Source: Podarcis pityusensis (lineage: Eukaryota). From it: a stretch of DNA of 64,000 nt. Made by a program: the position numbers and the translations under genes. This document shows positions 4,687 to 61,721 of this stretch, piece by piece; the first letter of the stretch is position 1; every line of letters begins with the position of its first letter. The stretch lies in the NCBI GenBank assembly GCA_964106645.2, contig OZ067050.1. The stretch is one strand, 5' to 3'. Below the pieces are notes generated by a model. The model worked only from the letters and a program-made list of their open reading frames with translations. It had not been told where the DNA came from and made no database searches.

Positions 4687-5286
4687 ATGCTGAGCTCAGT
4701 GTGCGTCTCCTCTTTCCGCGGGCGCAAGTCTGGGAACAAGCCGCCGTCCAAGTCATGTTTGAAAGGGGAGATGGGCCGGAACGAAGACAACGACAAGATA
4801 GTCATCAACGTGGGCGGCATCCGGCATGAGACGTACCGCAGCACCCTCAAGACCCTGCCGGGCACGCGGCTGTCGTGGCTCACCGAGCCCGACGCCTGCA
4901 GCAACTTCGACTACGACCCCAAGGCCGACGAGTTCTTCTTCGACCGGCACCCGCAGGTCTTCGCCTACGTGCTCAACTACTACCGCACGGGGAAGCTGCA
5001 CTGCCCGGCCGACGTGTGCGGGCCCCTCTTCGAGGAGGAGCTGGCCTTCTGGGGCATCGACGAGACCGACGTGGAAGCCTGCTGCTGGATGAACTACCGG
5101 CAGCACCGCGACGCCGAGGAGGCCCTCGACAGCTTCGAGACGCCCGAGAGCCAGGACGATGAGGAGAGCGGAGACCTCAAGCGCCACTGCCTGCAGGAGG
5201 ACGGGCGCAAGCTGGGCCGGTGGGCCGCCATGCAGCCCAAGGTGTGGGCGCTCTTCGAGGACCCCTACTCCTCCAGGATGGCCAGG
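4687..5286 (+). CDS. KCNC3: KCNC3 (Kv3.3) coding exon 1: N-terminal inactivation peptide and T1/BTB tetramerisation domain
   Basis: Translation [13 protein letters not shown]...[14 protein letters not shown]...EFFFDRHP...DVEACCWM...[14 protein letters not shown]. 600 nt, ending at AGG|GTGAGT (phase 0) at the conserved Kv3 junction. [28 protein letters not shown] and DVEACC favour Kv3.3 over Kv3.1/3.2/3.4. Confidence 0.95.
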
Positions 5287-19160: not shown

Positions 19161-19766
19161 GGCTGCAGAAATGTAAGTCGATAATTGTTTATCATTTATG
19201 ATTTGTCACTTTCCCTACTCTAACTGTCTTAAGCCTATTCTACTCATACAGTACAATGAGGTGCTAGAAAGGACTGCAAGGGGTGTGGGGGATGGAATAC
19301 TATTTTTAAATGCTCCAGTTTCACCCCCCCCCTTTAAAAAACCCAAAACCTTCTTGCAAGCAGGCAACTAGATCATCAGAAGCTGGACTACTTTTCTACT
19401 TGCAAGGATTAAAACAAACAAACAAGGGGAACATCTAAAAATGTGACCGTAATCTCTCACACTAGTGAAATCCAGTCCAGCCTACAACCCCCAAGTCTTA
19501 GCTTTGCCTGCATGCCTTTCCACTTGTTGGCATAGAGAATAAGAAAAGAAAAGGGGATATCTGCCTTCTGCCAGGAGCATACTCTGTTTTCGTTTGCCAT
19601 GTGGGTGGGTAGGGATGGATGCTTAAGCACAAATGGGTTCCTTTGGTAGGGGATGCTGTTCCTTCTCTGTCTAGTCTTTTCCAAGAATGCATGAGCACTA
19701 ATGGCTTTCTTCCCCATCCTCCCCTGTTACACTCCCTCTTTCCCCATGCCCTGCCTCTCTCTCCAG

Positions 19767-20700
19767 TATGTGGCCTTTGCCTCGCTCTTCTTCATCCTCA
19801 TCTCCATCACCACCTTCTGCCTGGAGACCCACGAGGCTTTCAACCACATCACAAACAAGACAGAGGTCATACAGTCAGAGAACGGCACCACCGTAAAGGT
19901 GGACTTTGAGATGGAGACAGAGCCATTCCTCACCTACGTGGAAGGGATGTGTGTCATCTGGTTTACCTTTGAGTTCCTCATGCGTGTCATCTTTTGCCCA
20001 GACAAGCTGGAGTTCATCAAGAGCACCCTCAACATCATCGACTTTGTGGCCATCCTGCCCTTCTACCTGGAAGTGGGCCTCAGTGGCCTCTCGTCCAAAG
20101 CGGCCAAGGACGTGCTGGGCTTCCTGAGGGTGGTAAGATTTGTCCGGATCCTAAGGATCTTCAAGCTGACAAGGCATTTCGTAGGGCTGAGAGTCCTAGG
20201 CCACACATTGAGAGCCAGTACCAATGAGTTCTTGCTCCTCATCATCTTCCTGGCCCTGGGGGTCTTGATCTTTGCCACCATGATCTACTACGCCGAAAGG
20301 ATCGGGGCTGACCCAGACGACATCACAGGCAGCAAGCACACCACCTTCAAGAACATCCCCATTGGGTTCTGGTGGGCGGTGGTCACCATGACGACTTTGG
20401 GCTACGGTGACATGTACCCCGAGACCTGGTCAGGCATGTTGGTGGGAGCACTGTGCGCCTTGGCTGGCGTGCTGACCATTGCCATGCCCGTGCCCGTCAT
20501 CGTCAACAACTTTGGCATGTATTATTCGCTGGCCATGGCCAAGCAGAAACTACCAAAGAAAAAGAACAAGCACATCCCACGAGCCCCCCAGCCTGGGTCG
20601 CCCAACTACTGCAAACCGGACATGCAGTCCCCACATCGCAGCAACCAGGGCGACTCATGCCCCCTTGCTCAAGAGGAGATCATCGAGATCAACAGGGCAG
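19767..20700 (+). CDS. KCNC3: KCNC3 coding exon 2: S1-S6, pore (TTLGYGD), proximal C-terminus
   Basis: Acceptor ctctctctccag|TAT. Encodes YVAFASLFF...S4 [18 protein letters not shown]...TTLGYGD...PVPVIV...[16 protein letters not shown]...EINRA. Donor G|GTAAGG; 934 nt, phase 1. N-glycosylation sequons NKT and NGT in the S1-S2 loop. Confidence 0.97.
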
Positions 20701-21261
20701 GTAAGGTGGGGGTGGGAAACACCCTGAGGGCAGAAATGGCTAAAAATGCAAACTATTTGCATAAACAGTCTCCTAATCTGGCAGCTTTGAAATTTTCTTC
20801 CGTTTGGGTTCCTCTTTCCACACTGAGTTACATACTGAGGAACTGCTGTTAGGAGGTTGCCCCAGAGCCTATGCACACTGAAGAGGATTCTTGGGCATCT
20901 TAGAGAGTGCGCTCTCATTGTTCCCCTCCATGTGAAACTGAGAGTTACCCTTAGAATGCATCCTGTACACCTCTTTGCACTGCAGAGGAAGGTTGGTAGT
21001 CATGGGCAAGCTGTCCTTCAGGAAAGTTTGTCCATAGCTCATTTGCTAATTATTATTTTTTCAAAAAAATAAGCTGTTCTGCTGTAAGCCACTTGTGTAA
21101 AAAAGGACAAACAAATTTAAGTAATAAATAAAATAATAATAAAATGAATAAAATACTTCCAGGCCTCCTTTCCAAGTCTTGCTGAACCTCAATTTGTTTG
21201 CTCTATGCATCCCACAGCTGTCTCCATACGGTAGGTTAGGATTCCAGCACCCTCCCTGAGA

Positions 21262-27612: not shown

Positions 27613-29632
27613 GTGGTTTTCAAACTGTTCCTAGAAATCTTTTGCGACATGCGGGGATTCCATGGAGATGTGCAACATTTACTCAGCCAACAAATCAGTG
27701 CGGAAAAAGTCCCTGAGGGCAGCAATATGAAATTCACTAACCTAGGGGGAAAGATCGGGGGGAGAAGAGTATATGCAACAATTGCCAAGTATTAAAAAAT
27801 GTCAGAAAGAGCAGGAGCAGTTGTTCATCCTATTTGCTAGAAAAGAGGCTAAGAAGCAATGGGATTAAATTTAGGAGCTTATCAGATGACTGGGTTTGGG
27901 GTGGATGAACCGTGTTCAATACACATGCAGGTGTTGATTATTAGTGGCACAGGATTCTTTCAGAAATCTTTAAAAAAACCAAAAAACATTATTTGTTTCA
28001 GCACATGATTTTGCCAGCACTCAAACACCATTACTGTGATATTGGGAACATGTGATTTTTCCGTCTACAGTGTGTGAAATTTGATTGTGCAGTGTAATAG
28101 GAACCTGATGGATAAGTTTGCCTGTGACATCACTGAAAGACACATCACCTTCAATAGTTTCCCATGACCTTTCTGAAATTTTGTTTTTAATGTCATTTTT
28201 TTGAAATTAAAGGCTGCACCATGCCAGCAAGGGAGTGTTTCAGTCCTTTATTTTGTATGCAGTAAAGCTCCCTCCTGTCTGCAATATTGTTCCACAATTT
28301 CATGGAGCCTTTCTCTCTCAGAAAAACTGTTCTCTGCAAGAGTGACCCTGTCCCCCTTTCTAGAATAATTGCCTCACAAGATAAGATATAATTATCTATG
28401 TTAACCTACAATAACGTCACCAATTCTACTGATCAAATAATAGGCGTCGTTATCAGAGGGGGAGAACTCCCCTTCTCAAAGTTGTTTGATCAAAACTGAG
28501 AGGCTTGATATGGATCATTATCTTAAATGAGGACAACAAAGATGCTTTTATTAAGGGATAGCAGCTCTTGATATTCACATATCAAAAGGCCATCACAAAA
28601 TGGATATTATTTCAGACTATTGTAGCTCTAGGAATGAAAACCTAAAAAAACCCTCCAAACCCAAATGTTCTTTATCTGTACATTTTTACTTGGTAGCCAC
28701 AACAAGTGTATGAGCTACTTACTATGTTTTCTGTTTGATTAATGAACTGTGCTAAAAATAAAGAATGCCATTTTGTAGCTGCCTTCTTTCAGAACACTTC
28801 TGCACTACGCATTTATTTAATCTATGATTTTCTTCACAGAACCTGAGAAATGTTTTGTAAGAGGTTCCTAGTTCTTCCACATAATACAACTCCCAAGTTT
28901 CCCTTAAGGAGGGAATCACTATTCCTATCACAAGCGACACTCCACATATTACAAGAATCCTCATAATCACATGTTAACAGAGACAACAGTTTCTTCTTTT
29001 TACCCATTTGCTTGAGCAAATCTTAATGTGAGTACAAAAGGGTAGCGAAATAGGTAATCAATTTACATCAACTGAACTTGAATGTGGCCCAAATATAATA
29101 ATAGAAAGTGGAGGAAAGTCCAAAGTTCATTTTCTCAGAAAGGTTTAGCTGACCTGAAGTTTTCAAAACAGTTTAAATCTAGCAAGATTTTTTGAAATTT
29201 TATTTCTACACTTTGGACATTGATCATCATTTATATATTTTAAGGCAATTATGCAAAGCATCAACTTGCTCAATTCAGTAATGTACATCTGATTTGCAGA
29301 GTACGCACTTTAAAAACTTACAGCAGCATTCATTACGATAAAAATGGTGTAAAGAATTGCTGCTAGAAGAAAATTGATTTGATTACAGACAAGCAAATTT
29401 GTGTTTGCCTAAGAATTTGCTCCACCCACCCACACTCCCAAAAAATATTTGTTGTATCTCAGGATGGGAAAGGTAGCTAGGTGGTTGTTTTGTTTTTTGT
29501 CTGTTTTTTGAGCTGGGAATTCTGGGGAAGGCGCAAAGGTACTATTGAGAAGCCAGGAGTCTGAGGTTTCTTCTTACTTGTGCATCACTTCTCTTTTTTC
29601 CAATCTCACCCCTTTCCCTTATCCGTTCACAG

Positions 29633-29827
29633 ATTCCAAGCAGAATGGTGATGCAGCAAATGCAGCATTGGCTAATGAGGACTGCCCCACCATAGACCAG
29701 GCCCTGTCACCTGAGGAGAAGTCACCTGTCACACCTGGCGGTCGGGAACGCTACAACCGTGACCGAGCCTGCTTTCTCCTCTCCACAGGTGACTTTGGTC
29801 AGTCACCTGATGGGAACATCCGAAAAG
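29633..29827 (+). CDS. KCNC3: KCNC3 coding exon 3 (cytoplasmic C-terminus)
   Basis: Acceptor ccgttcacag|AT. Encodes [65 protein letters not shown], resembling mammalian Kv3.3 exon 3. 195 nt, phase 1-1; donor G|GTACAT. Confidence 0.93.
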
Positions 29828-30137
29828 GTACATACATGTGCATACTTTTTGCCCTGTCTCTTTCGCAAGAGCATCTAAACAAGTAGTCCAAGTACGACAT
29901 CTCCCTTTCCCACATCACCACCACCTCCATAACCCTTGTCATAGCAAAACCTCAAATTGCCACATTTCTGAGGTAATAAAAGGCAACTGCTAATGTGTAC
30001 TTTGTTTAAATATAACCCTGTCATGAGGGTTAAAAGGTCATGACAAATTAAAATGAGGCAGATGATGCCCTAGCAACTGGAAGGCCTCAACTTGCCCATC
30101 TTTGCTACCATAGCAACAGCATCCATCGTTCCAAGAA

Positions 30138-41475: not shown

Positions 41476-42317
41476 ATTATTTTTAAAATCACAAATCAAG
41501 CTTAACAAAGTAAAAAAACAAAAAACGAAGAGCCCCTACCCCAAGGAGCTTACAATCTCAATTTTGACAGTGAGAAGGACAAAGGGGAAAGGCAAGGCAA
41601 GAAAATATGAATGCGAGTATATGCAGTTATGTGTTCTTAGTCCCGCCACTCAATGGGAACATTCTGTATAAGTGTGTACCGGACTGCAGCTTAAGTTTCA
41701 GGTAGGGATGAGGTCCCTAAACCAGGCCCATCATGAAACAGCTCTGAATTCTGTTTGCTTTGAGGGGGGAGCTCTATATTTCTACCCCTTTCCCCACCTT
41801 TCATAACTATAGGCACTCAGCTGTCTTTACAACCCACCCACCCCGGTATCCCATGTGCTTGTGGCTTATTTCATATTATCTGTTTTCATTTTCAGGGCAA
41901 ATATTGCGCCTGTCCACAGAAGGGAACACGATTGGGGGGCCCCATAGCTCTGGATTTGAGGATGCCCATAGAGACACAACAGGGTGGGGATGAGTGCAGG
42001 AGCTGTACTCCACAGCACACACACACACACAGAGTAAATAATCATGCTCAGAAGATGAAACTGAGAAATGGGTGTTGCTGGAGGAGTCAGCAGGGATGGT
42101 GAGGAAGGGGGATGGGGGGAATGAAATGGGAGTGTGGGCTTGATTTGGTGTAAGGCTAGAAGCATAAAAGGAAATAGGGATAGGTTAGCACAAAGGATAA
42201 GTATATTTGAACTGCACAAGGATTTATTAAGATGCTGGGCTCCCCTCGTGTTCTCCCCAAAGATGGGCTGCACCAATATTTGATTCCAATTAATGCCCCA
42301 TTTCATACGTCTTGTAG

Positions 42318-42355
42318 GGTCCACCCTGTATTCTCGTAACGCCCCGACCGCGTGA
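42318..42355 (+). CDS. KCNC3: Candidate KCNC3 alternative 43-nt C-terminal cassette exon (GSTLYSRNAPTA*; exon 42318-42360)
   Basis: Acceptor cttgtag|GG and donor CAG|GTACGT. Phase-1 frame is open to TGA at 42353-42355. Local CpG cluster in a CpG-poor intron. No transcript evidence. Confidence 0.5.
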
Positions 42356-44843: not shown

Positions 44844-46724
44844 CACTGTGATACATGCTTGGCCACGGGCAGAATATGCAACCCCCGTTGATGTCATTTT
44901 TGCATACTGCTCCATCAGACATTCTGATTAAATGCATACTATTAATATCCGTACACATATCTGCTCTAGTTCACAGTCTGCATCGTACCCAGTACCATAT
45001 TGTTCCAACACATACATTTTATACATAGTTCATGCTACCAACATAACGCAGTCTGTTGTGACCTCCAAACCCATGCATACATATGTGATTACATGTTATT
45101 CAGCTCCGAGGTGTCCTTTATTATGTACTCCGATGGCAGATCAGTGACATGTAAGTATCTATTTATATCTTTATTTGTTTTTGTGTATATAGGCTTTTCT
45201 TAGAGAGGCTCCAGCTGTGTGTTGTCTGCACTGTAAACTGCAGTCCCTTCCCTTGGAAGCTGCTGTGACTGAACACACCACATGTAGTGATCACCTTCTG
45301 CCCCTAGGTGCCACATAGGATGCCACGAGGGCACTTACCTGTCCCCTTTCCACACATAATATGCTAAGCAACTATGTTACAGTTCAAAACAGGCTCAATT
45401 CCCATGCATCTCGTCCCCCTGGCCTGTTTTAAGAGGAATGCAAGCACGGTGTACATGTTTTTGCTTGTGTTGCATGCCTAGCTTTGTGGGGAACCTATCT
45501 GTGAGCATGTAATGGGGGGCAGTGAGGATTTCTGCTTCCTAGGGAAACAGAGGAGAGATGTAGGAAAGGATATAGGGTGGAGCAGCAGGAAGCCAGGCTA
45601 GGATTCTCCAGAGAATGAAAAGCATATAGTCAGTTCCCCACAGTACAAGATCAGCTTATATGAAAGACTATTTGCTACTTTTTTTTCTAATTATGTTTAC
45701 AAAAAACCTACCACAATCTTTAAATGGCAATCATGTAAGCCAAGCCAGTATTATTATTGGCAATGCTAATTTCAGGAGGGGTTTTTTTTGAGGGGGGAGC
45801 AGTCCCTTGGGCAAGACATTCTCAGTGCTCCCATCAGCCAAACAGGCCCACTTTGTTCTGCTTGCCACTGTTCCCACTGCCTATTTCCTGGCCTCTCCCT
45901 CTGTGCCCAATTCACAGCACTTTCCAGAGGGAAAGGGCAAAACATGCAGAGGTTACTGCAGAGGCATGTAGAGGTTCTCCTCACCCATATAAGGTAGATG
46001 AACAGGCTGCATCAACAGCAGAGAGGAGGAGCAGTCAGGCTAGGAGGTTCTGAGAGTCAACAGTGGCAACCCTTGACAGCAGCCCTAATTATTACGGAAA
46101 AGTTTAACCTTTTCCTGCTTTGCTGTGGTCTTGACAAAAAGTGTTCCTTTGAAGCTGCTCTTTGCAGGAAGAAGAAACTGGGGCAAATGGGAGATTTCTT
46201 CACAGTGCGGTACAGTCCCAGTTTCAGAGGCAGGATTCCCCCTCCCTCCACAGCTGCTGCGGTTCTAAACATGATCAGCTCCCTCCAGCTGATGCTAAGA
46301 GTTTTGTTTTGTTTTTAAAGGCTGAATGTTAAATGCAAAGAGGCATCCATTTAAGGTCACGTCTCGTTTGGCCCTCAGCAAGTTCAGTTTCAGCTAACAG
46401 CTCATGCTCTTCAAGACTGAGGCCACAGAGCTTCCAGTTAAGGAATGCTTTGGCTTAGAATTATAATTGTGGGATAATGTTTCCAAGTTCAACATGGAAG
46501 ATCGAGCCTGAGACTGGTTGTAGAAGGTAACATTGATTTGGGAGATGGTCAAGAATGGTGGTATGACACACAGGCAGGCACAGGCTGACTGACAGCCCAA
46601 GGAACCCAAACCAGGGTTGGCAGCTTTGCACAGCTTTCTGGGATATTTTGTCCGCATGTGGCATCTGAAGCTTGCTGAGCTGATAGCTACAACCCTGCCC
46701 TCTAGCAATCTAGAGCAGCAGCAC

Positions 46725-46870
46725 TGGGGAAGGGTTATAGTTCAGTGATAGAGCACAAGCATTGTGTGCAGAACATCCCAGATTCAATTCCTTTAATTTT
46801 CAGGTGGCAAGTCTGATAAAGACTTCGGCCTGAAACCTTGGAGAACTAATGGCAATTAGAGTAAGACAGT
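46725..46870 (+). mobile_element. Old tRNA-derived squamate SINE
   Basis: ATAGTTCAGTGATAGAGCA..TCCCAGATTCAATTCC..GCCTGAAACCTTGGAGA. Confidence 0.5.
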
Positions 46871-47357
46871 GGCTATGTTTGAACATCAGCCAGTGGCTCC
46901 ATAAACCTTCATAAATTTGGCTTAATGTCATTTAACAAGCTGGGATCTGCTCAGCCAAAATTATCTTGGTTTGTTAATCAGCATCAAGACTAGAGTTCCT
47001 TGCTTCAGACCTAACAGGGAACTTTTGGTAAAAGCAAAATCTTTGCCAAATCCCAGGGCATGAAGGAAAGGTCGAAGGAGAAGCACCAGGCCACAGTGCG
47101 CAGCCACAGCTTCATTGAATGTATGAAGCCATCAACAAATCTCCAGATGTGGCCAGTGCTGAGCTAAGAGGACCAAGAATCTAGTATATCAGGCATATGA
47201 AGTGTAGCAGAGGGCAGCTCCCTCCTCTAGCATGCTGCTATGGTTGCTAGTGCCAGAGTCCCTACTGTGAGAGAGTCAGGGCCTTAACTTGACCTGTGTT
47301 CCTCTTCCCCCGTTCACCCCTTTCACTTCTCTCCTTTCCCCACAGCGCTTCCAACAG

Positions 47358-47479
47358 GCTATGAGAAGTCCCACAGCCTGAACAGCATTGCTGGACTGCG
47401 CCTGTCTCCGGCGCCCACTCCTTTCGGCTCGCCTGGTTCCGTCCGACGTCCCCGCTCGCCCATCCCTTCCATCCTATAG
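47358..47479 (+). CDS. KCNC3: KCNC3 C-terminal exon ([40 protein letters not shown]; ~616 aa isoform; alternative acceptor at 47346 adds ALPT)
   Basis: Long pyrimidine tract, then cacag|CGCTTCCAACAG|GC, both phase 1. Clearly homologous to the GYEKSRSL...PSIL tails of Kv3.2b and rodent Kv3.3. Not in the ORF track. Confidence 0.88.
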
Positions 47480-49190
47480 AGACGCACCAGGGATGCTTGG
47501 GGTTAGCTTGTATGTTCGTTTATTTTTTAAAAAAATATATAGAGAAGAAAAAGAAAAAAAATAAGGTAATGCCAAAAAAAAAAGGAAAAAGAAAACAAAG
47601 GCGGTCAAATGCATTGGAACAAGTAAAACACAGGAGGCATCTCACAGGTGATGTTGCACTAAAGTTTGCACTTTCTGGAGTGTCCATGAGAATCCCGAGG
47701 CCTGAAGCCTTCTGTTCCCGTGGCTATGGATCAAGAGTGGGGCTTAAATAATTTACCGGCGGGAGGGTGAATGCGGGGGGCTGGCTTGCTCAGAAAATCC
47801 AAATACTCCGAAGAGGAGGAGGTCACTGAGAGATGGACACTGCAGGAAAGGGGCTCTGGCCCTCCTCTCTGGGTTGCCTGCATTTCTCCCCCTCTTCAAC
47901 CTCACTAGAGTGCACGATTTTTCTCTGGCCCTGGCTTTGCGCTTTATTTCTCTCCCTTTAGTGCTCTTCCCCTTTTCATCATCTTACTCAGGACTGCAAT
48001 GAGCCATAGAGCTTAGTGACAAACTTCCTTGGACTTCTCTCTCTCTCTCTCTCTCTCTCTCTAACACTGTAATCTGTTTTCAGTCTACCAATCTCCATAA
48101 AACATATTTCCAAGTGTCAAAACTATCCACACTTTAGATATCCACCCAGTCTTTCTCTCTCTCTGTCTCTTTCTCTCTCTCTTCTTCCTTACTTACTGAG
48201 CAATTCTGATTCTTTGAACACATGGACACTCCACCGTCTCCCTGGAGAAGGCCACCCCACCCATCTGCCTTTGGCCTTCTATTATCTTTCCTTGGAATTG
48301 TTCTCTTTTGTGCATGGATCTTCCATCAATCACAAGCAATAAGGTCAAGTGCTCCCTTCTGCCTGATGCATGATAATGACTTTCCTATGATGTAGATATT
48401 CCAAGAACACTCAAGTTCCTACAGATGAAGGAGCTGAGGGCAGGCATGGAAACCAGAATGTGGTTGGGGAGCAGGAAATTCCAGGATTTGACTGGGTCTG
48501 AAGGAGAAAGCTTAAGAGACCCAGCCTTCTTCCTTCACGTCTCCCCGCCCCACTTCTCTTCTGTTCCTTTTTTCGTTTTCCGCACACAGAAAAGAAAACG
48601 GTAATGGAGCACTCCTTGTTATGGTGAGTGCTTTCACTGTGATTTTTTTCCTGATTCCATCCGAAGCTGGGATGGAGTGGCGCTTTGATCTGATTGCAAA
48701 AAAAAAAAAAAGGAGCGGGGAGAAATAAAGACTCAACAACAACAAAAATGAAATGCAGGAAAACAAAAATAAACCTATTTTTCAGCAGATATATATATAT
48801 ATATAGAACAACAGGATCAGAACATTTGTTGGCGACCATGTGTGGGGAAATATTTCACCTGTAAGCTTCTCCTGGAGCAACAGAATATGGGGACACATTA
48901 TTTAGCAGCAGAGTACGGGACATATTATTTTTCAAAGCAATGCTGCTGAGACAGACAAAATAAAAGCTTAAGGAATAGTGTCGCCGAGCTAAACTATTTA
49001 GAATCTGCATTTTCCAAGCCAGCATGTATTTGCATGTGATACTGTAAGCGACAATATTTAATGTTATATGCAAAAACAAAAGAAAAAAACAACAACACAA
49101 AAAAAGAACAACTACAACAAGAGAGAGAGGTATACTTTCCTTCTGGACTTGCAATGCCCTGCAACAATAAAAATCACCAAATTTAGCCAG
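47480..49190 (+). other. KCNC3: Probable 3' UTR following the GYEK..PSIL exon
   Basis: Follows TAG at 47477-47479. Repeat-poor with A-rich tracts; AATAAA near 48724, 48768, 48959 and 49166. True end unknown. Confidence 0.5.
48036..48062. repeat. (CT)n microsatellite in the putative 3' UTR
   Basis: Direct reading. Confidence 0.9.
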
Positions 49191-52100
49191 TGCCCTCTCC
49201 CCTGACCTGTTCCCATCCCGCAAGGGGGTTGGAGGCACCACACATTGTAGGAGCCTGGTGTATCCTAAAGGGCTTTTTCCTTCCCTGGGTGTGGGATTAT
49301 TGATGGCGGCAAGGAGAGCTCTCTGTCACAGAGCAGAATTCAAAAGCCTCGTGTTTGTAAGAAAATGTTTATAAATCTGAAACAATGCAAGAGGGAGGAG
49401 AATGTTGTGCACACTGTCAACTCATATAAGTAAGCCCCAGAGGAAAAGACAGGACGCAGCAAGGCTGGGGATTTATTATGTGAGTGTTCAGAGAGTTGGC
49501 CCAGCAGGACTGCAAAAAGCAGTGGTTTTGAAGGGTGGCCAAGCTGAAAACAGGAAGTGAGAGATGCTCTGATGTGTTGCAAACTCCATACATAGAGGCA
49601 TTCTCTGTAGCTGATGTATTTTGGTGAAAGAATTCTATTTTGTCAGTGGGGTATAATACAGAGTGGTATGTTCCCTTTGTAGATGTTCTGGAAGATGGGA
49701 ATCTTCAGTGCCTCAGCTACCATTAAAAACCGGTTCCCCAAGCAATTAGCAGTTGTAAAAGAGGAAAAAACAAACAAACAGCAAAGCACCACCGCTTGTT
49801 TGAAAAGTATAGGACCAATTTGACTGAATATTTTTTTAGGTGTGTTAAGATTTGCAAATTTGCACAGCTCCAGTTTTTCCAATTAATGCACTTTTGAAAA
49901 ATGTAAAACTATGTTTTGTAAGAGGCTTAGGAAACGAAGAATGAACTGTTGGAAGATGTATCCTTACAGTTTTTAAAGAGAATTCCTCAACTTGGAAGTG
50001 GTTCTGGAGCTTGACTGAGCCAGTGATGGAGGCAGGGTGACCCCTGTGGCAGCCAAAATATTTTGTGTGTGGTCTGAAAGTGAGCTTAATAGGGGAGGAT
50101 TCTGTCCTCAACCTTGTTGCTTGTTCCATAAGCAGTCTTAAAAGTCGCTCTCTAGGAACGAATATTATGCGTAGCTGAAGTGATTGGTATCCCATAGTTC
50201 AATGCTGATCCTCTTGCTTCTTGTTGGCAGGCCTTGCATTCACAGGGTAAAGACATTCATATCCTTGATGGCTGATGTGTGATAGCCAGAGTTGCACAAA
50301 AACAAGCTATCTTGTGGTTATGAAATGGCAGCTGGTAGGCACTGGCCAAACTGATTTATACGTTAACCATTATTTACTCCATGTAAAGCCTGTGCTAAAT
50401 GCATCACATCTTCATCAGCATCTGATTAGCCTTATGGAGTACAGAGCTGGTCTATTAAATGTTGACCTTAAAGGTCATAGATACCTTGTTGTCATTAAAC
50501 TTATCAACACCAGTAGCTGCATATCATTGTGGTGGCCAAGTGATCAGCTCTCAGAGAGCTTAGAAACCTTTCCCTTTCCACCACTACACATTTGATAAAA
50601 CATGTTTATTTGTTTATTTAAAATATTTCTGTCCCAACTTTCTATCTCTCCCAACAGGATGCCCTGGCAGCTAACAAAAGTTACAGTACCACTGTAAAAA
50701 TTCAAGAGCAAGATATGTTAAAAGAACATGTAGTTCATTTCTCTTATGCTAACCAGACAGGAGCAAACTCATTTAGTTCAGACAGTGGGTGCTTAACCCA
50801 TAGTCTGTGTCAAGCTATCCATAGTAAACAGTTACCAGTTCTTGACCAGTTGAAGAAGCTACCTACCATTCACATTTAAGAGGTAAAATGACAAATACTC
50901 TTCTCTTATGCCTTCTATACTTTGGTTCTCGTAACTAGTAGAAGTTCAAAATCTCCTCTTACTCATCATTGTAGCAGTATAAGTAGCCTGCTTTTTGTAG
51001 TTTAAGCTTATTACTCAAAGCATTTGGTCTGCTGTTGCCAAAGCTACATTTGTACCCATAAAGACTTTAGAAACCTTTGTGTTAAATGAGGAGCAATAAG
51101 ACAAGCTAAAAGGAAACGGAAGAAGGCAACAGCATGTCCATTGAGAGAAGGACAGTGGAGACAAGACTTCATTCAGACAATCATATCTCAGCCAGATAAA
51201 TCAAAATATGAATGAGGCTTGTGTCTGCACATGCAACCCCTTCCTCCATTCTCAGAGTATTGTAGTTAAACTTGGAAGCCTTCAATTATTAACTGTATTT
51301 TTCCATTTCATTTGAACCAAACCAAGACATTATCATTATCATGTTCAGGACAGGACAGGACCTTAAGTCACCTTCAAACCATGGTTTAAGATCATGGCTT
51401 GTTCCAAGCCTGGTGACCATAGTTTCCCAGTTTAGATGAAGTAGGAAATTGTGGTTGATTCACAATTTCATGGCTTATTGTGGCACACCAACAGTGCAAA
51501 AACAGAGGCAAAATGCTTGTGTACATCTTGGCTTATTTAGCAGAGATATGATTGTCCAATGTCAGCACTGGCTATTTTATTAGACTTTTGTCTGCATTGT
51601 ACCCAGTTGTAACATTTTTTCACAGTCCAAATTGATCAAAGGAGTTATCTCATGTGAAAGTAACTTCTTTTTAATGCCCATAAAATAGCTCTCTTATAGA
51701 TATAACCAAGGGGCTTCTGGGACTGATTTGAGGGTGTGGGAAGTCAGCCAACCTGAGAATCAATGACAGTCATGTGAATGAACCAGTTCCCCATTATTCT
51801 GAACTTGGAAAATCAGGTTTGTTCTGTGGTTAGTTAAAAAAACCCAGGACCAAACTATGCTTTAAAATCCTGGTTTATTAACTACCTGTTAGGCAAAATC
51901 ACAGATTCCCAAATTTGGAAATAATGGGGAACTGTAACTAGTTCAAAAGTGGAAGTTTTTATCTTCTTTTTGTGCATGCAGAAAATGAAGAGAGGGGAGG
52001 ACTGGGTGTGCTAGCTTGAGCTTTGTGCAGGCTTGCTCTCATAACAACAAGCCATTGTTTGCTATCATACCTAGATCGGACATGGGAATGCATTTATGAC

Positions 52101-52399
52101 AAATTATATCAGTTTATACCAATTAAACTCTCATAGCTCATAGGCACAAAAACTCTTTCCTGGAAATTGCAGTTGATTGTAAGGTTATTGGAAATTCTGT
52201 GTTAAGAGATCCTTATAAATCTTCCTCCATCTCTCAGTGCTATTGTCCCTAGGTTTCTTGGGGATTATGAACGAATATTAAGCCAGTTCCGGTCTGTGGG
52301 GTGAATGTTTAGTTTGTTTTGTTTTGTTTTAATATCTCAGCCTTGATAATCCAGCTAAAGATAATCTGAATTTAGGCTAACATAGTTAAAACATCCGTA

Positions 52400-53140
52400 A
52401 ATAAAATATAAGAAAACAATAATATGAAATATAACCCCAACAATAGCAGCTTAAACACTTCAGTATAAAAACCGAAAGCCTGTTGAACTAAAACTGTCTT
52501 CACTGCCCATCTGGAGGCTAATAAAGATGGAGCTGAGCTGTCTTTCCTTGGGAAGAGTGCACTCCAGAGTCCTTGTATTACAGCAGAGAAGACCTTTCTC
52601 ATTGTGTCCACCTGCTGCACATCCAACAGTATGCCCCATAATTCAGAATGGCCATTGGGCACCTGCTATTTCTTATATGTGTGTGTGTTTGATTTCCAGA
52701 CCACCTTTAGGGCCCTCTATTAAGGCAGCTACTAATTTATAAAACTCAATATATCACTGAAGTCAGAAACATATCAAAATTCCATAAAGCAGCAAAGTCT
52801 GTTTAAACAGCCTTGCATATTAACCTTTAAAATATTTAAAAATATTTCTAGCCAAGATAAATCCAATTTAAAACATCAGTACTCAATATCTGTCAAAAGG
52901 AAACAACTTAAAGCAAATTGGTCTTTGGAACCCATTTGAAGGCATCCCACAAGCATTGGGGCCTCAACAAAAGAGGCACTAACCCTCATGCCACCAACCT
53001 AATCAGTCTCACTGACCAGGAGGGCCTTTGTAAATTACGGTAATCTCAGAGTTTGTATAGGTGAAAGTGCTAATTCAGTTAACTGGTCCTCAAACCATTA
53101 CAGCTTTAATGGTCAGTATCAAGTCTGAATAAATTTAACC
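52400..53140 (-). mobile_element. Degraded L2-like LINE fragments
   Basis: AAAGCCTG..AAAACTGTCTTCACTGCCCATCTGGAGG..CAGCAGAGAAGACC and related blocks; heavily decayed. Confidence 0.4.
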
Positions 53141-54343
53141 AGCCCAAAGTCAATTAAAAGAGCCTTCCCAGTTGAAGGATGGATAAAAGCATTGTCTGAT
53201 GCAACCAAAACGTTGCCACACATTGTTTACATGTTTCTAACACGCACCCTGAAATACATACTCTTAGTTTGTTTCTTATAATCTATTATGTTTGCAAAAG
53301 GATTTCAGGGCAAATGACAAAACACAGCATAACATCCATTAGTCAGCTGATTTTAATGGTATTCATAGAGATTCTAGTTGTCCTTAATATTAGGGTCTTG
53401 TTGTGTCGAATACGTTCATTATGTGCTAGCCTAGGGATTATTTACTTCCTCATAGGTAATTTAGGTTACAATTGTTCCTTTGGTCTAGTTAAGAGTGGAA
53501 GTTCTGTTGAAATCAGTGGGGCTATATTCCTATTAAATGTATTTCAGGATTAGAGCCGTGTTTTGTAGTTTGCGTAAACATCTCCTGATCTTGCTAACTA
53601 TGCTCTCTCATCTTCATCAGCATGTGATTGGCTTCTCAGCATCACATGCTATTGAAATCATTCCATCGGTAGAATGCTGCCGTGATACTAGCAAATGCCA
53701 GCAGTGACATATAAGGCCTAGTTTACATCAAGGTGGTCAATCTGTATCTGCGCTGTACCAGTTAAGATTGCAAATTGGGGCTTCCTTGAATTAATGCCAC
53801 ATACAACAAAATAAATAAATCCAATAGCATAGAAAATTAGATGTCAAGGAAATGGGTTCTTCTAACCAATATAGGTCCTTGATGCTAGTTACATATCTGT
53901 GTGCAGCATTATTATTATTTTAGAGACGACCATTCAATTATGTGTCCCATTCCCTGCAGTCCAGAATGCTACAACCATTGTGAGAACTACCCATCAGATG
54001 TTCATAGAGGCAGTAATTCAAAGGACCATTTTCCTCAATGATCTTTCAAATCTCATAATTCTACTACCCTGGTTAGCAACTAGGTAGGACTACTTTAGGA
54101 AGGGAATAAGGAGTGTTGGGCCAATGCTTACATTCCTTAAAAGTGGACTGTGAGCATGTTCTGTTAGTACCAATGCCACTTTCTTTACACATTTTATGAC
54201 TTTAGGTTGCCTCTGTTCATCCTTCAGGGGGCTGGACTTGACCCAGAAATGTCCAGTTACTGACCCCTGTTCTTTGTTTTCATCTAATTCTTATTGAGAA
54301 AGGACCCTTGAGTCCAATAACAGGACCTTGGTTAGCTGAACCC

Positions 54344-54546
54344 TAGGGTTGCCATATTTCAAAAAGTGAAAACCTGGACACAAAAGTTGAGCTATTTTTA
54401 AGGAAATTTGCCAAAATCTACATTTCTGACAAGGGTTGCCATACATCTGGATTTTCCCTGACATTTGAGCAATTTCTGCCCAGACGCTGTTTCCGATGGC
54501 CAAATACCGACTATGTCCAAGAAATTCCAGAGGTATGGCAGCCCTA
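54344..54546. mobile_element. Non-autonomous hAT (Tip100-like) element
   Basis: TIRs TAGGGTTGCCATA / TATGGCAGCCCTA; 8-bp TSD CTGAACCC / CTGAATCC. Confidence 0.75.
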
Positions 54547-55952
54547 CTGAATCCTAACCTCTGAACTTGAGGACTTTGTGGCCTGTATTCTTTAATGCAG
54601 TTTGTTCTTTAATGCAGAATAGTAAAACCCAGTGTTATTGAAAGTACACATATTGGCCTGTAGGGTTGTGTGTGATTAACTATTTCACTCTGATTATTCC
54701 CCCCCCCCCCATTTTCTTAAGAGCTACCACTCCCTATTTGGAAACCTACCCATCTCACATACTATGCAAACATTTCCCCTGCTTCTGTGGAGGCACATAC
54801 ATCCCACTCCTCCCCAAGAATCCTATCTAACCTCAACCTGTAACCCCCCCCCTCCCCAGATAGTGGAAGCTCTTTATGCAACGATTCCTATGCAAAAATA
54901 AATAAAAAATAAATAGCTGGCTAGATTCAGGAGAGTGATTGGGAGCCCCTCTCCTCTGGCAAATTTGGGAGAGGGGTTAATTAATGCAAGCTCCTGTCTA
55001 AAATAAAATTCCCTTTGCGGTGCATTTTCCTCCTACCCACATCCGGGCTGGGACAATGGGGGGCAGTTTGTTAAGTTGGTCATATTGACCAAGATTTCCC
55101 TTTAAAGGACACACAGAGTCCCATATTAAGTTGATTTAATAAATGTCCAGGTGTGTAACTGAGATAATGGGGTGGGGAGGCATTTGAGGGAAGGGGTGTG
55201 TTGACTAAGGCCGCAATCCTGTGGATTCTTACTAGGGAGTAGGGCCCATTAAACACAATGAGATTTCTAAGTAAACATACTTCAGACCCTGCTATACAAG
55301 TCTGCTCCCCTTTGATGTGGTGCCCTGTGCCACTCTACAATATTGATACCCTAAAACATAACTAACAAACAACAAGCCAGTGTGCATTCTAACCTGCAGG
55401 TGCTCCTGCAGCAGACGGCCGCCTTTATACATCATGGTAACTATAGATTTTCTAGAAATGACTCCCCACCACCACTTTAAAAGTTATATATGTAGGAGAG
55501 GAACGGGACTGGTTAGCCTTGGGACTTCTGTGTGTGTTGCATTTCTGCACTTTAAATCCTGCCTCCCACTCACCTATCAGGGTTAATGGGCAATTTCCTT
55601 TCACAACATTTTCATTTGTTGTAACTGGTTTCCTTCCTTTGTATGGTTTGGTTTGGCTGGTTTGTTGGAGCTGATCTTCATGTTCATGAAGTACAGCTCT
55701 CCTGGACTATACCACTTCAGAATACAGTGGGGGGTTTTCAGGGGGGCGGGTCACAGTTTGCATAGGCTCATAAACAGCCACTGATTCATCTGGGATGAGT
55801 ACAATTGTCTCCAGGTGAGCAGTGGGGGAGGAAATTTGTGCAAACTGGATTGAAATAGGTTCTTTGCTTTTTCAGTCTGTAGATGGCTTACATGACTATG
55901 CATGAACATGACCGCTAATATTTATTTGTTGATAGTAAACTTTGTGGAGTTG

Positions 55953-56193
55953 CAGTTACAGATAGGTAGCCGTGTTGGTCTGCCATAGTCAAAACAAAAA
56001 AATTCCTTCCAGTAGCACCTTAAAGACCAACTAAGTTAGTTCTCGGTTATACCCCTCCCCACCTTCTCACTATATAGAAGGATCTGGCAACTTCTGTTTC
56101 AGTGTATCTGAAGAAGTGTGCTTGCACACGAAAGCTCATACCAAGAACTAACTTAGTTGGTCTTTAAGGTGCTACTGGAAGGAATTTTTTTGT
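55953..56193 (+). mobile_element. Penelope-like element terminal fragment with inverted pseudo-LTR segment
   Basis: 12-bp direct repeat TTTGTGGAGTTG at 55941-55952 and 56194-56205. Perfect 54-bp inverted repeat 55990-56043 / 56144-56197. Contains TTAGTTGGTCTTTAAGGTGCTAC and a hammerhead motif, typical of reptile PLE ends. Confidence 0.78.
56104..56141 (+). ncRNA. Minimal type I hammerhead ribozyme motif
   Basis: GTAT-CTGAAGA-A-GTGTGC(TT)GCACAC-GAAA-GC-TC-ATAC: stem I GUAU/AUAC, core CUGANGA, stem II, GAAA, palindromic mini stem III (AGCU), UC cleavage site. Confidence 0.72.
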
Positions 56194-59100
56194 TTTGTGG
56201 AGTTGGTTTGCCAGTTTGAATGCTCCCCAATTTTAAAAATTGTGTATCTGTAGAAAACTAACATGTCAAGGAGAAGACAAGCCTAGAATCAGCAACATGC
56301 TAGCTTTCTGTGGATAATTTTTATTTTGTTTTATTTATACCAGTCAAGCATTCTGAAGTAGTACAAGCTATCCTGCATCCTGAAATGGTGGAGTCCCATT
56401 AGAGCTGTACCACATGTGTTTTGCAAATTGGTTCTGAATGCAGAGACTGAGATAATGTTATAACAGCATCTCTACCCAAAAGTACCACAGACCCCACCTA
56501 GTAATATTGTCACTTTATTTGTATGTTCTCCTTTTGGGGTAGTTTCTTCCCTGCCCAGATGAAGAAACATAATTTTTCTATGAAAAAAATTGTAACAGCA
56601 ACATCAATGTTGCTCTCACATTCAGTATGTTAATTTTAGTAGAATCGTTTTCTCTTTTTTAGTATTTCTTTAGAAAGCATTTGACACATGGCAATAGAAA
56701 TATGTTTTTTGCAGCTTCAAAATACCTTGATTTCTTTTCAATTTAAATAATTTTGGTTTCTAAATTCATTTTGTGCAATACAGGGCTCATCCAGACTTCT
56801 GTTTGCCCCACTGCTTTCCCCTGGGGAAACCCAGGCCTAGTGCTTGATCTTTAGCACTCAGTTTGAGCACCTTTCTGGGCAGCAGAAGACAAGCAGAAGT
56901 GTGGATGAGCCCATAGTTGAGTTGCCAAAAAAACAACCCCTGCATTTTTAGGGAAAAAATGATTCATGCATTTGAGTTGCCAAAAAAATGAAGAAAGAAT
57001 GTGGTTTTTTACTATAAAATATATATTCCAGGACACGGGGGAAATTAATAAAAAATAAAATGTGACCCCTTTTTGTAAGAAATATGGGGAAATGCTAGTT
57101 GGCATTGATATTTTCCACATGCAGAATGCTACCAGCTCTCATTTTTGCTTCAAAAACCAAAACGTGTATGCAATTTTTCAAATTTTTGACATTTCTGACC
57201 CCCCCCCCTTCTCCAAAGCAGAACAAAACAATCAAATTCAAGCAAGTTTAAGGTGTTTACACCTCCCCTGAGATTTTCAGGGTGGGGAATAAGTTATGAT
57301 TTAAGAAATAATTTTTTAACTTGAGACATGTTGTGTTTTATTTTCAGTGTGCAAGAAGAGATGAAGAATGTTGTTTTATAAACTTGCACATAAAATATTC
57401 ATAAATATGGAGGGTTGGAAATTTTAAAATTTGAAGAATGTCATGGGTTTTGAACAAGCTTCTACTATTATAAAAAAAAAATCTGATTTGTTTTGGTTTT
57501 CATCCAAGCCAGACTGAGATGTTGTATAGAAGAGTATTGATGAAGAGCAGCCTAGTGGGGGCCGAGTTGTGAAGGAACCATCTGGCATCTGCTTAGGGTA
57601 GCATGCAGCCCATAACTGAAAATGTCCAGCTCAACAAAGACTATGGGGTTAATGGTGTCTTACATCAGTATTTCACCTGCATACCCATGTGTTTAACTGG
57701 GTACAGAAAATGCGCTTGTGGTAGTTGTTTGCTGAGCGTTCTTTGTGTATGCTTGCCCGCAGGGCTTCTTTTGGCCAGAGCTCAGAAACTTTCCAGAGCA
57801 CAGCTTTGGAACACAAAAATCAGTAACACCTCTGAGGATGCACGGAGTGCCTTCCCTTCACTACTAACTACAATCCATCTCCAATAATCTGGGAGCTTCT
57901 GAGTCAGAGGGTGAGGCTTTTGAGAAGGCTTGTGCCCTGGCACATCTTTTTTTAGGAGCTTATTTTAGAAAGCTTGCATGACAAATCTGTAGGTTGGTAC
58001 AATGTGTATCAAGGTGAGAGTGCTTGTAGGGAGAGGGTGTCCTTCATGAAATCTATGAGCCCCACTCACTGACTTAACTTTAGCCAAAACATGCCCCACA
58101 GTTATTGTAAAAGGTAAGGAGCCAGGCCCCCAGCCTCCCTGTAATTCAAGCACTGTGTAGCCAAACAAACAGGAGAGACACAGTCTAAAGGCCTAAGGAA
58201 GACTTCATATGTTAACAGAGAAGTGAAGCGCTAAAGCTCTCTGAGAATCATCCTCTGCCCTCCACATGTTTTATTTCAAAGTCCTAGTCAGAAGTATGGG
58301 AGCTTTGGATGATGAACTGGCAAGGGAAAGGCACCCTGTACATGTTCAGAGGAATTATTCGCTTCAACTAGTACCTGCAGTAGAAAAAAACCAACACCCT
58401 TCCAGCTAGAGCATTATAGGAGAGGAGTGAATCCCAAGGCCAGATCTCCAGCTCAAGGTGAACAGGCTCAAGCACTAATGTGAATGTGAGTAAATGTCCC
58501 CAGGGAGTGCATGTGGTGGTTGTGAGGTGGTTCTAGGTTCTAGGTTTGTGTGTTATTGGCCTAAAGATGGATGCTAACAGTTACCCACTAAGAGTGTGCA
58601 AGAATTTCCACTGTATGGTCATAAGGTAGAAACAGCCCAGGACTTTGTGTCTGAAGCAGAAAATCCAAATGGTTCCTTCACCCCATGATTGTGAAAATAG
58701 TAAAATAAATAATTGACAACATATTGGTATTTATCTATGTGCCAGAATGTGCTGACTGCCTTGTCCTACGGGTGGTAGTTAGAAGCAGGTCTTGTAGCGA
58801 CGAAGCATAAAACTGACCATGAATGATGACTGAAATTTCTCATGCAAATCTCTGCATTTGATTGAATATGGGCATTAGTGGAATAGTCCATTTGATCTTT
58901 TAGCCATTAGTGTAGGAGTAATTTGTATTTATGTCACTCTTTAGAAGGAAAGTAGTCTTTCAAGTCTTCAATGGCAGACTAGACTACATCTATCCAATTT
59001 GATCTATTAAGTTCACCCAGTAGCTGGAAACAGTTCTGATCAAAGGTGGGCTGTTTTTATTCAACATCCTTTAGCTCTGCCAAACTATGCCCTGCGTCTG

Positions 59101-60594
59101 TGTGCCTGTGCAACTGTCTGGGTGTGTCTGCTACAAGACAATCTCTCCTTACCTTTGCTAAGCTGGATACCTGCATCTAGGTGCATCCCCAAGGTGGGTG
59201 GTGGGAGGGGGGGAAATATACATGGATAAAACCCTGATTCATTCTGGAGGTACAGGGGACAGAGTGCCCTATTCTCTTGCAAATGGTAGGGGTGATTGAG
59301 GCCTTGGAAGGGGAGGGGAGAGTAGACAGCAGGTGCTTGAGGGGGGCTCCTACCTTTCAGCACTGCTTTTCCCCAATGCTGGATTAAATTGGGAGCAAGG
59401 GTGAGACATGGAGGAAAGACGGGTGATTTCAGACTCAGGTTGGGTGTGGGCGGGGGGAGTGGAAATGTGGTTTTGCCCCATGTTGGTGGGGGTGTGGCTT
59501 ATTGGGGGGAAGGTTGATTATGTTTGGCAGAGGATGGTGCCAAAAGAGGGGAAGGAGGGGTGGGCTCAGGGATGGTGGGGGAGGGACACAGAGCTATTTT
59601 TTCAAGCAGATGTAATATAATAATTATAATAATAAAATTTAGAAAGTGATGCTATTTTTTCACAAATCCCTCTTTTTCCCTCTTCCAGTTGCCACAGCAA
59701 CATTTTTAAAAGTCCTGTACTGGAGGCATAAGGATTTCCCACGGGGCCAATCGAGGGAGAGAGGACCACTGAAAATGTAGGGGGTGAAGGAAGAGTATTA
59801 TTTTGCCAAAAATAATAATATGTAAGAGAAAGATTTCTTTGTGGTTTTCAAAGCGTTCTTCTCCCAAATGTGAGTGATCTTTTTTCTGCTCACACTGAGC
59901 AAAAATATTAAATCATGTCAGTTGCTCAAGAGGAACAAAACAAACAAACTTTTATAATTTTTTTTAGTCACCCAAAACTTTTCACTCTCTGAAAATGTGC
60001 AATTTGACTTTAAAAAAACAACAAAAAACTTTATTTACGCTCAATCCCAAAACTGAAACTTTAATATGGAATGCTATATTTTAATGCCTTGAAACTTGAA
60101 ATTATTTTTTACTACTTTGTCATTATAGGTGACCAAAATAAATAAACTAGACCTGAAAAAAATTTTTAAATCCTGAACATTAAGTTTTCAGGAATTTCAG
60201 TGTTTAAAAAAAAAACAACCAACAACATTTCTTTGATCATTCCAAAAAGAAATTGGACAGGAAAATTTCAAACAGTTCAAGAGAGAATTGTAAATGTGGG
60301 GGAGATGAACATTTCTCTGACACACACAACAGAAATGCCAGGGTCTTTATTCTACCCGACACCCCGTGGTATTTCCTTCCTTCACATGCAATTCATGTGC
60401 CAAAATGTTTTGAATTCTCAAATGAATGTTGAACTGTTAAGTGTTGGGAGGCATTTGGTGGGACTGGAGGGTCAATGGGGACAACATACACACTTGTATT
60501 AATGTGCCGAACCCCTTATCCCTTCTGTCTTTGTTTCATTCTTTATTTCTTCATGCTTCTCCACCTCCCGCACAGCCTCATTCTTCCTTCATTC

Positions 60595-60992
60595 TAGAGG
60601 AGCAGCCCTATTAGACTGTTGCAGCAAAACCAAACCAACCAAGAGTCTTGTTGTGGCACCTTAAAAACTCAATATAAGTTCACTATAAATTCATGTCTTT
60701 AGTTTCAGTAATCCCGATTAACTGTCATGGGCTTCCCCCAAAAGAATCCCAAGAAATTTTAGCTTGGTGAGACTATTCCACCCGACTCTTGTACTTTCAT
60801 TACTACAATTTCCCAAGACAGAGGGGAAGATTATTAAACTAGTTTCTGTCTTTGGTGTAGATAAGAGCTAACAAATTTATTGTGATGGATGCTTTCTAAT
60901 TAAACAGGGCGGTCGCCTGTACAAGTTCCTGCTGCAATAAACTGTTGTCTTTAAGGTGTCACAAGAATAAGATTCTTTGTTATTGTTTTGCT
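60595..60992. mobile_element. Degraded Penelope-like fragment interrupted by a MITE-like insert
   Basis: AAGAGTCTTG..GGCACCTTAAA and GTCTTTAAGGTGTCACAAGA form inverted remnants. The interior resembles the MITE at 24135-24270. Confidence 0.4.
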
Positions 60993-61721
60993 AGGTCACA
61001 CAGCCTCCTTATTGTCCTCTTGACAGGAAATTATTTCTAAGAATTTAAATTTTGCTCATTCATTCCATTCACATCCAAACCATTCTCGGTTCCAACGAAA
61101 TAAGCAAAGTATATTCTCTTTCCACTCCCTCCCCGCACCCCAACTTGCCTTTCAAAGGACTTGAAGATGAAAAGACAAGACAAGAACACAGGCTTAGAAA
61201 AAAAAACCCACAAGTGAGGAACTGGTGACTTGCCTCTGCCCAGCTCTGGGCACTGGTATCTGTGGAAGGAAACAGACTGTTCCACATATAAGTATTCCTA
61301 GCTAGATGGGCACCTGCATGTGCAACTAAGTGTTCCACGTGCAGTTCTGTCCTTGGATCTGGTAGGAGAACCTTTTTTAAAAAGCTAACATCCCAATGAT
61401 TGACTGCTTTGGAGGGGGAGCATGGATTCACTTACCCTTCCATGCCAAATAGCAAATTGGTAGGGTTTCTCGTTCTGCTTTTAAGAGCTGAATGTGCACA
61501 GCCCCATCTATGCACATGCTCCAGGGGATCCCACAGAACAACTTCTGGCAAAATGCATCAAGAGTTTGCAATCCTGTGTGTGCACAGAAATTGTGTCTGT
61601 CTGTGTATATACATATGCACACAGACGTACACAAGCATAGGGCAAAGTTTCTGCACACGCATACATACTTGCGCACACAGGGGTAATAATAAAAGAGTAC
61701 AGTTGCAGTTTGCATGGATAA

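Follow-up and report, generated by a model that had tools for sequence, protein, structure and literature searches.

A recent head-to-head Penelope-like element insertion, likely within a long KCNC3 3' UTR, bears a minimal hammerhead that is most probably an uncut passenger

The window analyzed here, a 64,000-nucleotide stretch of DNA from Podarcis pityusensis, carries exons of KCNC3 at 4687-5286, 19764-20741, 29632-29829, and 47345-47479, with an inserted element 8.5 kb beyond the stop codon. A preliminary description of the sequence had named KCNC3 as the host gene of this insert, and both tblastn and a tree support the orthology, exon 2 clustering with KCNC3 proteins (97/92 support, 17 of 26 rows). 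The features of the locus are given below; positions within the element are counted from the first G of hammerhead stem I as +1.

47345..47479, plus strand: final coding exon of KCNC3, with the stop codon at 47477-47479, assigned to the ortholog by tblastn with P0001 (97.7%) and by a tree
47480..61600, with its end beyond 61600, presumptive plus strand: probable long KCNC3 3' UTR (contigs of runs X15 and X17)
55941..55952, plus strand: left copy of a 12-bp target-site duplication, single copy in organisms B, C, and E
55953..56047, minus strand: 5'-truncated Penelope-like element (PLE) piece with tail and without the hammerhead, element approximately +37 to +130
55990..56197, plus strand: fold-back with perfect 54-bp arms, where two pieces overlap head to head
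56049..56193, plus strand: inverted, tail-less pLTR piece bearing the hammerhead, element approximately -54 to +90
56071..56078, plus strand: pLTR TATA-like box with a putative promoter role, the pile of copy 5' ends lying about 30 nt downstream
56104..56141, plus strand: minimal type I hammerhead motif, predicted cut after 56137
56194..56205, plus strand: right copy of the target-site duplication, of which the first 4 nt match the element too

The insert comprises 241 bp between identical 12-mers (55941-55952 and 56194-56205), and its longest perfect inverted repeat measures 54 bp (55990-56043 and 56144-56197, or 58 bp if one mismatch is allowed) around a 100-nt loop; recomputation returned exactly the dimensions first reported. 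The right arm extends 4 nt into the right duplication through microhomology, leaving the right boundary ambiguous by 4 nt. Two pieces of the same pLTR-ORF junction make up the insert, joined head to head, and the 54-bp hairpin arises because they overlap. The plus-strand piece is identical over 145/145 nt to 34 of the 147 other loci examined (chosen by similarity, some overlapping), and the minus-strand piece has one mismatch in 95 relative to its nearest copies. The predicted folding energy of the 265-nt stretch is -124.8 kcal/mol (z = -12.8), a stability equalled by none of 200 shuffles.

The loop of the fold-back holds a complete minimal hammerhead at the position first described, every element of which could be located:

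56104-56107, plus strand: 5' strand of the 4-bp stem I, all pairs standard
56108-56114, plus strand: CUGAAGA of the hammerhead core
56115, plus strand: extra A between core and stem II
56116-56129, plus strand: stem II, the G56116-C56129 pair being G10.1-C11.1
56130-56133, plus strand: GAAA of the hammerhead core
56134-56135, plus strand: GC, part of mini stem III
56133-56136, plus strand: palindromic AGCU mini stem III, U16.1 being 56136
56137, plus strand: C17, the predicted cut site
56138-56141, plus strand: AUAC, 3' strand of stem I

The core is intact throughout (C3-U4-G5-A6-N7-G8-A9, G12-A13-A14, and U16.1-H17), and the motif combines an extra base past A9 with G10.1-C11.1, a palindromic mini stem III, and a short stem I. 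With 6+6 pairing, no more than 2 nt would remain for the loop of stem II; a monomer is accordingly limited to 5 bp with a 4-nt loop, while all six pairs can form between two molecules. The motif fits the description of minimal hammerheads in the accessible text of PMC4209133, where such motifs are reported in fish and reptiles. An Infernal search with Rfam models, proposed at the outset as a check, did not return it: none of the 11 hits at E <= 5 was a hammerhead; the models expect a stem III. The best Rfam hit, the mir-559 microRNA, scored 54 bits against a cut-off of 95 bits and was set aside, as any long perfect hairpin would match. A covariation test on the 100 relaxed-core matches listed of 8,688 found one family throughout, with single changes only.

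The parent of the insert was recovered as a pLTR-ORF-pLTR partial tandem in all six fetched loci (L051-L056), with a unit of 3,010 bp, pLTRs 94-96% identical to the insert, and a 951-codon open frame. This frame matches RVT_1 at 46.2 bits (cut-off 29.6) with YIDD at 592; the GIY-YIG domain scores 21.8 bits in the full ORF, just below its cut-off of 22.6, but reaches 26.6 and 25.1 bits when shorter copies are scored. The suspected Penelope-type origin is thereby borne out, and the sequence of the parent is that of an active EN+ PLE. A C-X2-5-CxxC linker between reverse transcriptase and endonuclease marks Neptune and Nematis in the part of PMC8557442 available, and the parent ORF carries a CxxxxCxxC linker at residues 811-819. 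The linker being common to both clades, the parent is probably assigned to Neptune over Nematis by host range, Neptune and Poseidon occurring in vertebrates according to the portion of bioRxiv 2026.07.22.740005 that could be consulted. A non-LTR retrozyme or SINE family was considered and rejected: the full 241 bp was matched by the insert locus only among the 40 candidates scored out of 966, and ends differ from copy to copy, with no fixed unit. When a full-length copy was searched against the window by BLAST, no further family member appeared in it.

The exact 34-nt core occurs 5,037 times in the genome of 1.5 Gb, against none for its reversed control, and the relaxed core 8,688 times (control 5), giving a probability of 0.19 of at least one core per 64-kb window. 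The motif is thus no chance sequence, yet an ordinary genomic feature. Typical layout was assessed in 88 loci. The tail has 3,006 exact matches, and 91 among the first 100 in the list fall in 90 loci, from which two duplicates were removed; the sample comes entirely from contig C1 and is skewed to a young subfamily. An adjacent inverted piece was present in 63 of these 88 tail-selected loci, ending at +81..+99 in 49 of the 63, and 46 of the 63 had a duplication of at least 11 bp, with a mode of 12 bp (24 loci). Short fold-backs devoid of an ORF made up 47 of the 88, and in two a whole hammerhead was left in the loop as it is here, an uncommon subclass. The inverted layout itself is already published (PMC3846280 and the Fig. 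2 legend of PMC8557442, as far as their accessible parts go). The insert is therefore a young PLE fold-back stump of known type with its family's standard minimal hammerhead.

Its youth, claimed from the outset, is supported by the 99-100% identity of its pieces to other copies and by an empty site in relatives. DNA contigs of X3 (organism B) and X8 (organism C) join 55940 directly to 56194, as do the probable-RNA contigs of X15 (organism E) and X17 (organism C), which proves the target-site duplication; the insertion, absent in organisms B, C, and E, is not conserved. Within the insert-bearing species (organism A), contigs of X1 span both filled junctions. In X2, from a different sample and study of the same species, one contig stops at 55952 and another begins with 18 unplaced letters ahead of 56194. 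Contigs built from 31-mers overlap by 30 letters, and 18 plus 12 gives just this number, consistent with an empty allele. The search for an empty site thus succeeded in three related organisms, and the contig ends suggest that the insertion is likely polymorphic within the species too, with an empty haplotype in the second individual.

The preliminary description supposed that KCNC3 transcription might reach the insert through a long 3' UTR or through an intron ending at 59689. The latter is not supported, an X15 contig being unbroken over 59585-61600 and no joint at 59689 appearing among the joints listed from relatives' contigs. The former is probable: in organism E, X15 reaches every one of the 30 bins of 46600-61600, at a depth of 1.3 in the intron-only bin, 4-11 as far as 54 kb, 21 just ahead of the site, 23-29 past it, and 49 at 59.6-61.6 kb. 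This rightward rise is in keeping with a poly(A) bias of the reads and a transcript on the plus strand whose end lies past 61600. Coverage by X17 (organism C) is thin and shows no gradient; it extends to 28 of the 30 bins, the first two being missed. The RNA status of X15 and X17 is a guess, their contigs are strandless, and organisms E and C lack the insert; RNA coverage, one of the checks originally suggested, accordingly amounts to relatives' probable-RNA contigs that cross the site, with the strand presumed. On these contigs, the insertion likely lies inside a KCNC3 3' UTR of 14 kb or more. No paper on a long KCNC3 UTR was found in the literature outside subscription journals.

That the site lies outside KCNC3 RNA altogether, with the gene ending at an AATAAA at 48.7-49.2 kb and the relatives' coverage reflecting DNA carry-over or another transcript, is a doubtful reading but one to be taken seriously. 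Four AATAAA lie at 48724-49166, X15 and X17 are RNA by guess and strandless, and X17 is patchy, shows no gradient, and has zero depth on the last coding exon. The climb of X15 from 4 to 49 from left to right, with 1.3 in the intron-only bin, is however unlike DNA. As to another transcript, TBC1D17, the closest gene on the minus strand, has its stop at about 82,070 (extended window coordinates), some 20 kb to the right of 61600, and AATAAA about 2 kb past that stop at 80,034 and 79,730, so read-through from it is less likely. Were the site outside the mRNA, the neutrality of the insert would only be strengthened.

Whether the ribozyme would cut is a separate matter. It had been pictured as a hairpin-presented hammerhead, a view that folding predictions do not support. 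In the context of the insert, the hammerhead-shaped fold has P = 1.4e-5 at a penalty of 6.9 kcal/mol, with stem I pairs at 1e-4, while in the native leader (RNA from the likely native start) it has P = 4-5e-3 at a cost of 3.3-3.4 kcal/mol; the fold is thus predicted to be about 300-fold rarer in the insert, by nearest-neighbor folding that disregards tertiary contacts and protein help. Removal of the left arm with the upstream 55 nt kept still leaves a cost of 7.6 kcal/mol, indicating that the hammerhead faces competition from the upstream pLTR bases as well as from the arm; the extended arm is predicted to pair with the 3' strand of stem I, and the upstream bases with the core. Cleavage at the insert hammerhead is unlikely on these predictions.

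The family as a whole points the same way. Copy 5' ends fall at the cut site (+32..+38) in 3 of 150 cases, with 3.9 expected from the +5..+104 rate, and at -2..+4 in 40 of 150, about 30 nt past the TATA-like box at what is likely the transcription start. Insertion templates therefore appear, from the ends of copies, to be uncut RNAs starting just ahead of the hammerhead, and the tally agrees with the uncut-template result obtained in vitro. The possibility that the tailed piece of the insert, which starts 2 nt past the cut, began at a ribozyme cut was rejected, as there is no excess of ends at +32..+38. A common spliced exon as the source of the pile at -2..+4 is disfavored, the letters ahead of 56104 differing between contigs (agreement 0.40-0.41), in a test that would overlook a very short exon.

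Published activities are likewise low. Single minimal hammerheads are inactive and dimers weak in the accessible text of PMC4209133, and a review gives very low rates for minimal hammerheads, dimers included (PMC6765202, consulted in part). One of nine Xenopus retrozyme dimers was cleaved (bioRxiv 2026.07.22.740005, available portion). The anole PLE hammerhead cuts only with the PLE protein, in vitro, is dispensable for insertion, and leaves no RNA-seq ends, according to the accessible sections of PMC11167929. Main texts of the literature outside subscription journals yielded no account in which a PLE hammerhead acts on the UTR of a lizard host.

Against this background, the insert could still function within the KCNC3 3' UTR as a self-cleaving site that requires a dimer or a protein and is partnered by PLE leader RNAs or by a second KCNC3 molecule through stem II and AGCU, with the cut removing the poly(A) end of the long isoform. 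The core is intact, the location is probably in the UTR, two isolated 38-nt motifs co-fold through stems I and II and AGCU at -25.7 kcal/mol, family RNA is expressed, and protein-assisted cleavage has been obtained in vitro for an anole PLE (PMC11167929, in part). Set against these are the in-context fold probability, copy ends that, in the native element too, are no more frequent than expected at the cut site, the low dimer rates of the published texts as available, and relatives that lack the insert; we consider such a site, and a regulatory cut of KCNC3 RNA by the insert generally, very unlikely. The narrower proposal that PLE leader RNA and PLE protein cut KCNC3 mRNA in trans, at a segregating, intact split-type hammerhead in a 3' UTR of more than 14 kb, is at least as improbable. 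If it were true, an active retrotransposon family would down-tune any host transcript bearing a sense-oriented stump, of which thousands are present, and the KCNC3 locus would be a natural heterozygous test. Alternatively, the fate of KCNC3 RNA could be altered by the long perfect duplex (through A-to-I editing, dsRNA-binding proteins, or Dicer) or by the pLTR piece, which carries its TATA-like box in sense. RNAs can be affected by inverted repeats in their 3' UTRs, the 54-58-bp duplex dominates the predicted fold, and the TATA-like box and likely start site lie in sense; similar hairpins in 47 of the 88 sampled copies mean, however, that this insert is not singled out. We think such an effect unlikely, if somewhat more plausible than a regulatory cut, and any effect on KCNC3 RNA is more likely to come from the duplex than from the ribozyme.

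The true RNA runs X21 and X23, from organism C, contain family RNA of either strand, at a depth of 13-53 on insert bins that derives from other copies; no piled ends were seen in these runs, a weak result, as the unique flanks and the KCNC3 exon are barely covered. Counting against the view of the hammerhead as an uncut passenger are the probable transcription of the site, the perfect core, and the existence of trans partners as family RNA.

We favor, with considerable confidence, a recent two-piece head-to-head insertion of a Neptune-type PLE, likely in a long KCNC3 3' UTR, whose hammerhead is most likely an uncut passenger; the insert is likely neutral. Under this scheme, the GIY-YIG endonuclease likely makes a 12-nt staggered cut at the target, and the reverse transcriptase would copy uncut pLTR RNA from both target ends by a putative double priming, starting at its two usual sites (about +130, which gives the tail, and about +90), with the two short cDNAs then joined head to head. 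The parental ribozyme would occupy the extreme 5' end of the likely transcript and need a second copy, paired through the palindromic AGCU stem III and the near-palindromic stem II, and probably the PLE protein too; that of the insert has no partner in cis and is predicted to misfold. As a single locus, this is one among thousands of PLE stumps. Its probable location in a mature KCNC3 mRNA and its probable segregation nonetheless offer a natural allelic test, in heterozygous brain RNA, of whether the minimal hammerheads of PLEs ever cleave the transcripts of a host in vivo.

Domesticated vertebrate hammerheads include those of the rodent Clec2 3' UTR and the amniote intronic HH9 and HH10, which are conserved across species and cleave as monomers. 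The insert shares with them a hammerhead motif sense to a host gene, but is lineage-specific, likely polymorphic, and without a monomeric stem III; a domesticated regulatory ribozyme was rejected as a description of it, given its absence in organisms B, C, and E and an active fold disfavored at P = 1.4e-5. Metazoan PLE minimal hammerheads, on which Lunse et al. reportedly worked in 2017, are closer in form. Those described in the accessible text of PMC4209133 are, like the insert motif, of type I with a short stem I, an extra nucleotide between 9 and 10.1, G10.1-C11.1, a palindromic 15.2-16.2, and no loop 3. Stem II is 5-6 bp and near-palindromic in the insert, in contrast to 7-8 bp in Schistosoma, and the insert hammerhead, unlike the metazoan PLE minimal hammerheads, is solitary and within a host transcript.

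In its architecture, the insert resembles the inverted-pLTR insertions of Adineta Pen2a_Av (PMC3846280; scheme in PMC8557442), with which it shares, in the parts of these papers available, a head-to-head 5'-truncated copy, a one-sided tail of 30-40 bp, a short target duplication, and a hammerhead in the pLTR. It differs in that both of its pieces are too short for any ORF and that only one of them bears a complete hammerhead, which lies in the loop. The green anole element Poseidon_Ac, as portrayed in the accessible sections of PMC11167929, is like the insert family a squamate PLE with a hammerhead at the pLTR-ORF junction, uncut RNA as template, and two reverse-transcription starts that make the tail. 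The insert family is set apart from it by the Cys linker of Neptune/Nematis and by first ATGs at +98 and +137, past the hammerhead. The two 3' ends of the insert nevertheless fit the two reverse-transcription starts described for the anole element in the same sections (PMC11167929).

The KCNC3 ortholog probably has a 3' UTR of at least 14 kb that spans window 47480-61600 and extends beyond it. Across this interval read depth climbs from left to right, from 4 to 49, in X15, a run presumed to be RNA that yields strandless contigs and comes from a relative with an empty insertion site. Squamate orthologs of the gene carry the database label 'KCNC1-like', yet they group with KCNC3. Two alternative C-terminal exons match the Anolis protein isoform P0004:

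38652-38774, KCNC3 alternative C-terminal exon, 90% match
42317-42352, KCNC3 alternative C-terminal exon, 100% match

Another small inverted-repeat element lies at window 56783-56912 (23-bp arms, 84-nt spacer); DNA depth indicates that it is multi-copy, and it is also found in relatives.

To the right (loci L035-L037), in extended window coordinates, are the following:

82,076-96,736, minus strand, TBC1D17, the right-hand neighbour gene
92740-93119, antisense to TBC1D17, older copy of the Penelope-like element (PLE) repeat, or pLTR, 87% identical, near the end of L036
99,066, plus strand, exon

The older copy sits within a TBC1D17 intron, and the exon resembles AKT1S1.

In a family-wide tally, the 5' ends of 40 of 150 PLE copies fall at -2 to +4 relative to the first G of hammerhead stem I (+1), corresponding to window 56101-56107. 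This pile lies about 30 nt 3' of a TATA-like box, exactly at the hammerhead start, and is likely to mark the transcription start; the site also resembles a splice acceptor. Elsewhere in the genome, six full-length copies (L051-L056) retain an open 951-codon frame, and the family is probably active. At a further locus, L057 (G000:C1:6051938-6052119), three hammerheads, spaced 74 bp apart in direct tandem, adjoin an inverted piece; L057 would be a better natural dimer substrate than the insert at window 55953-56193.
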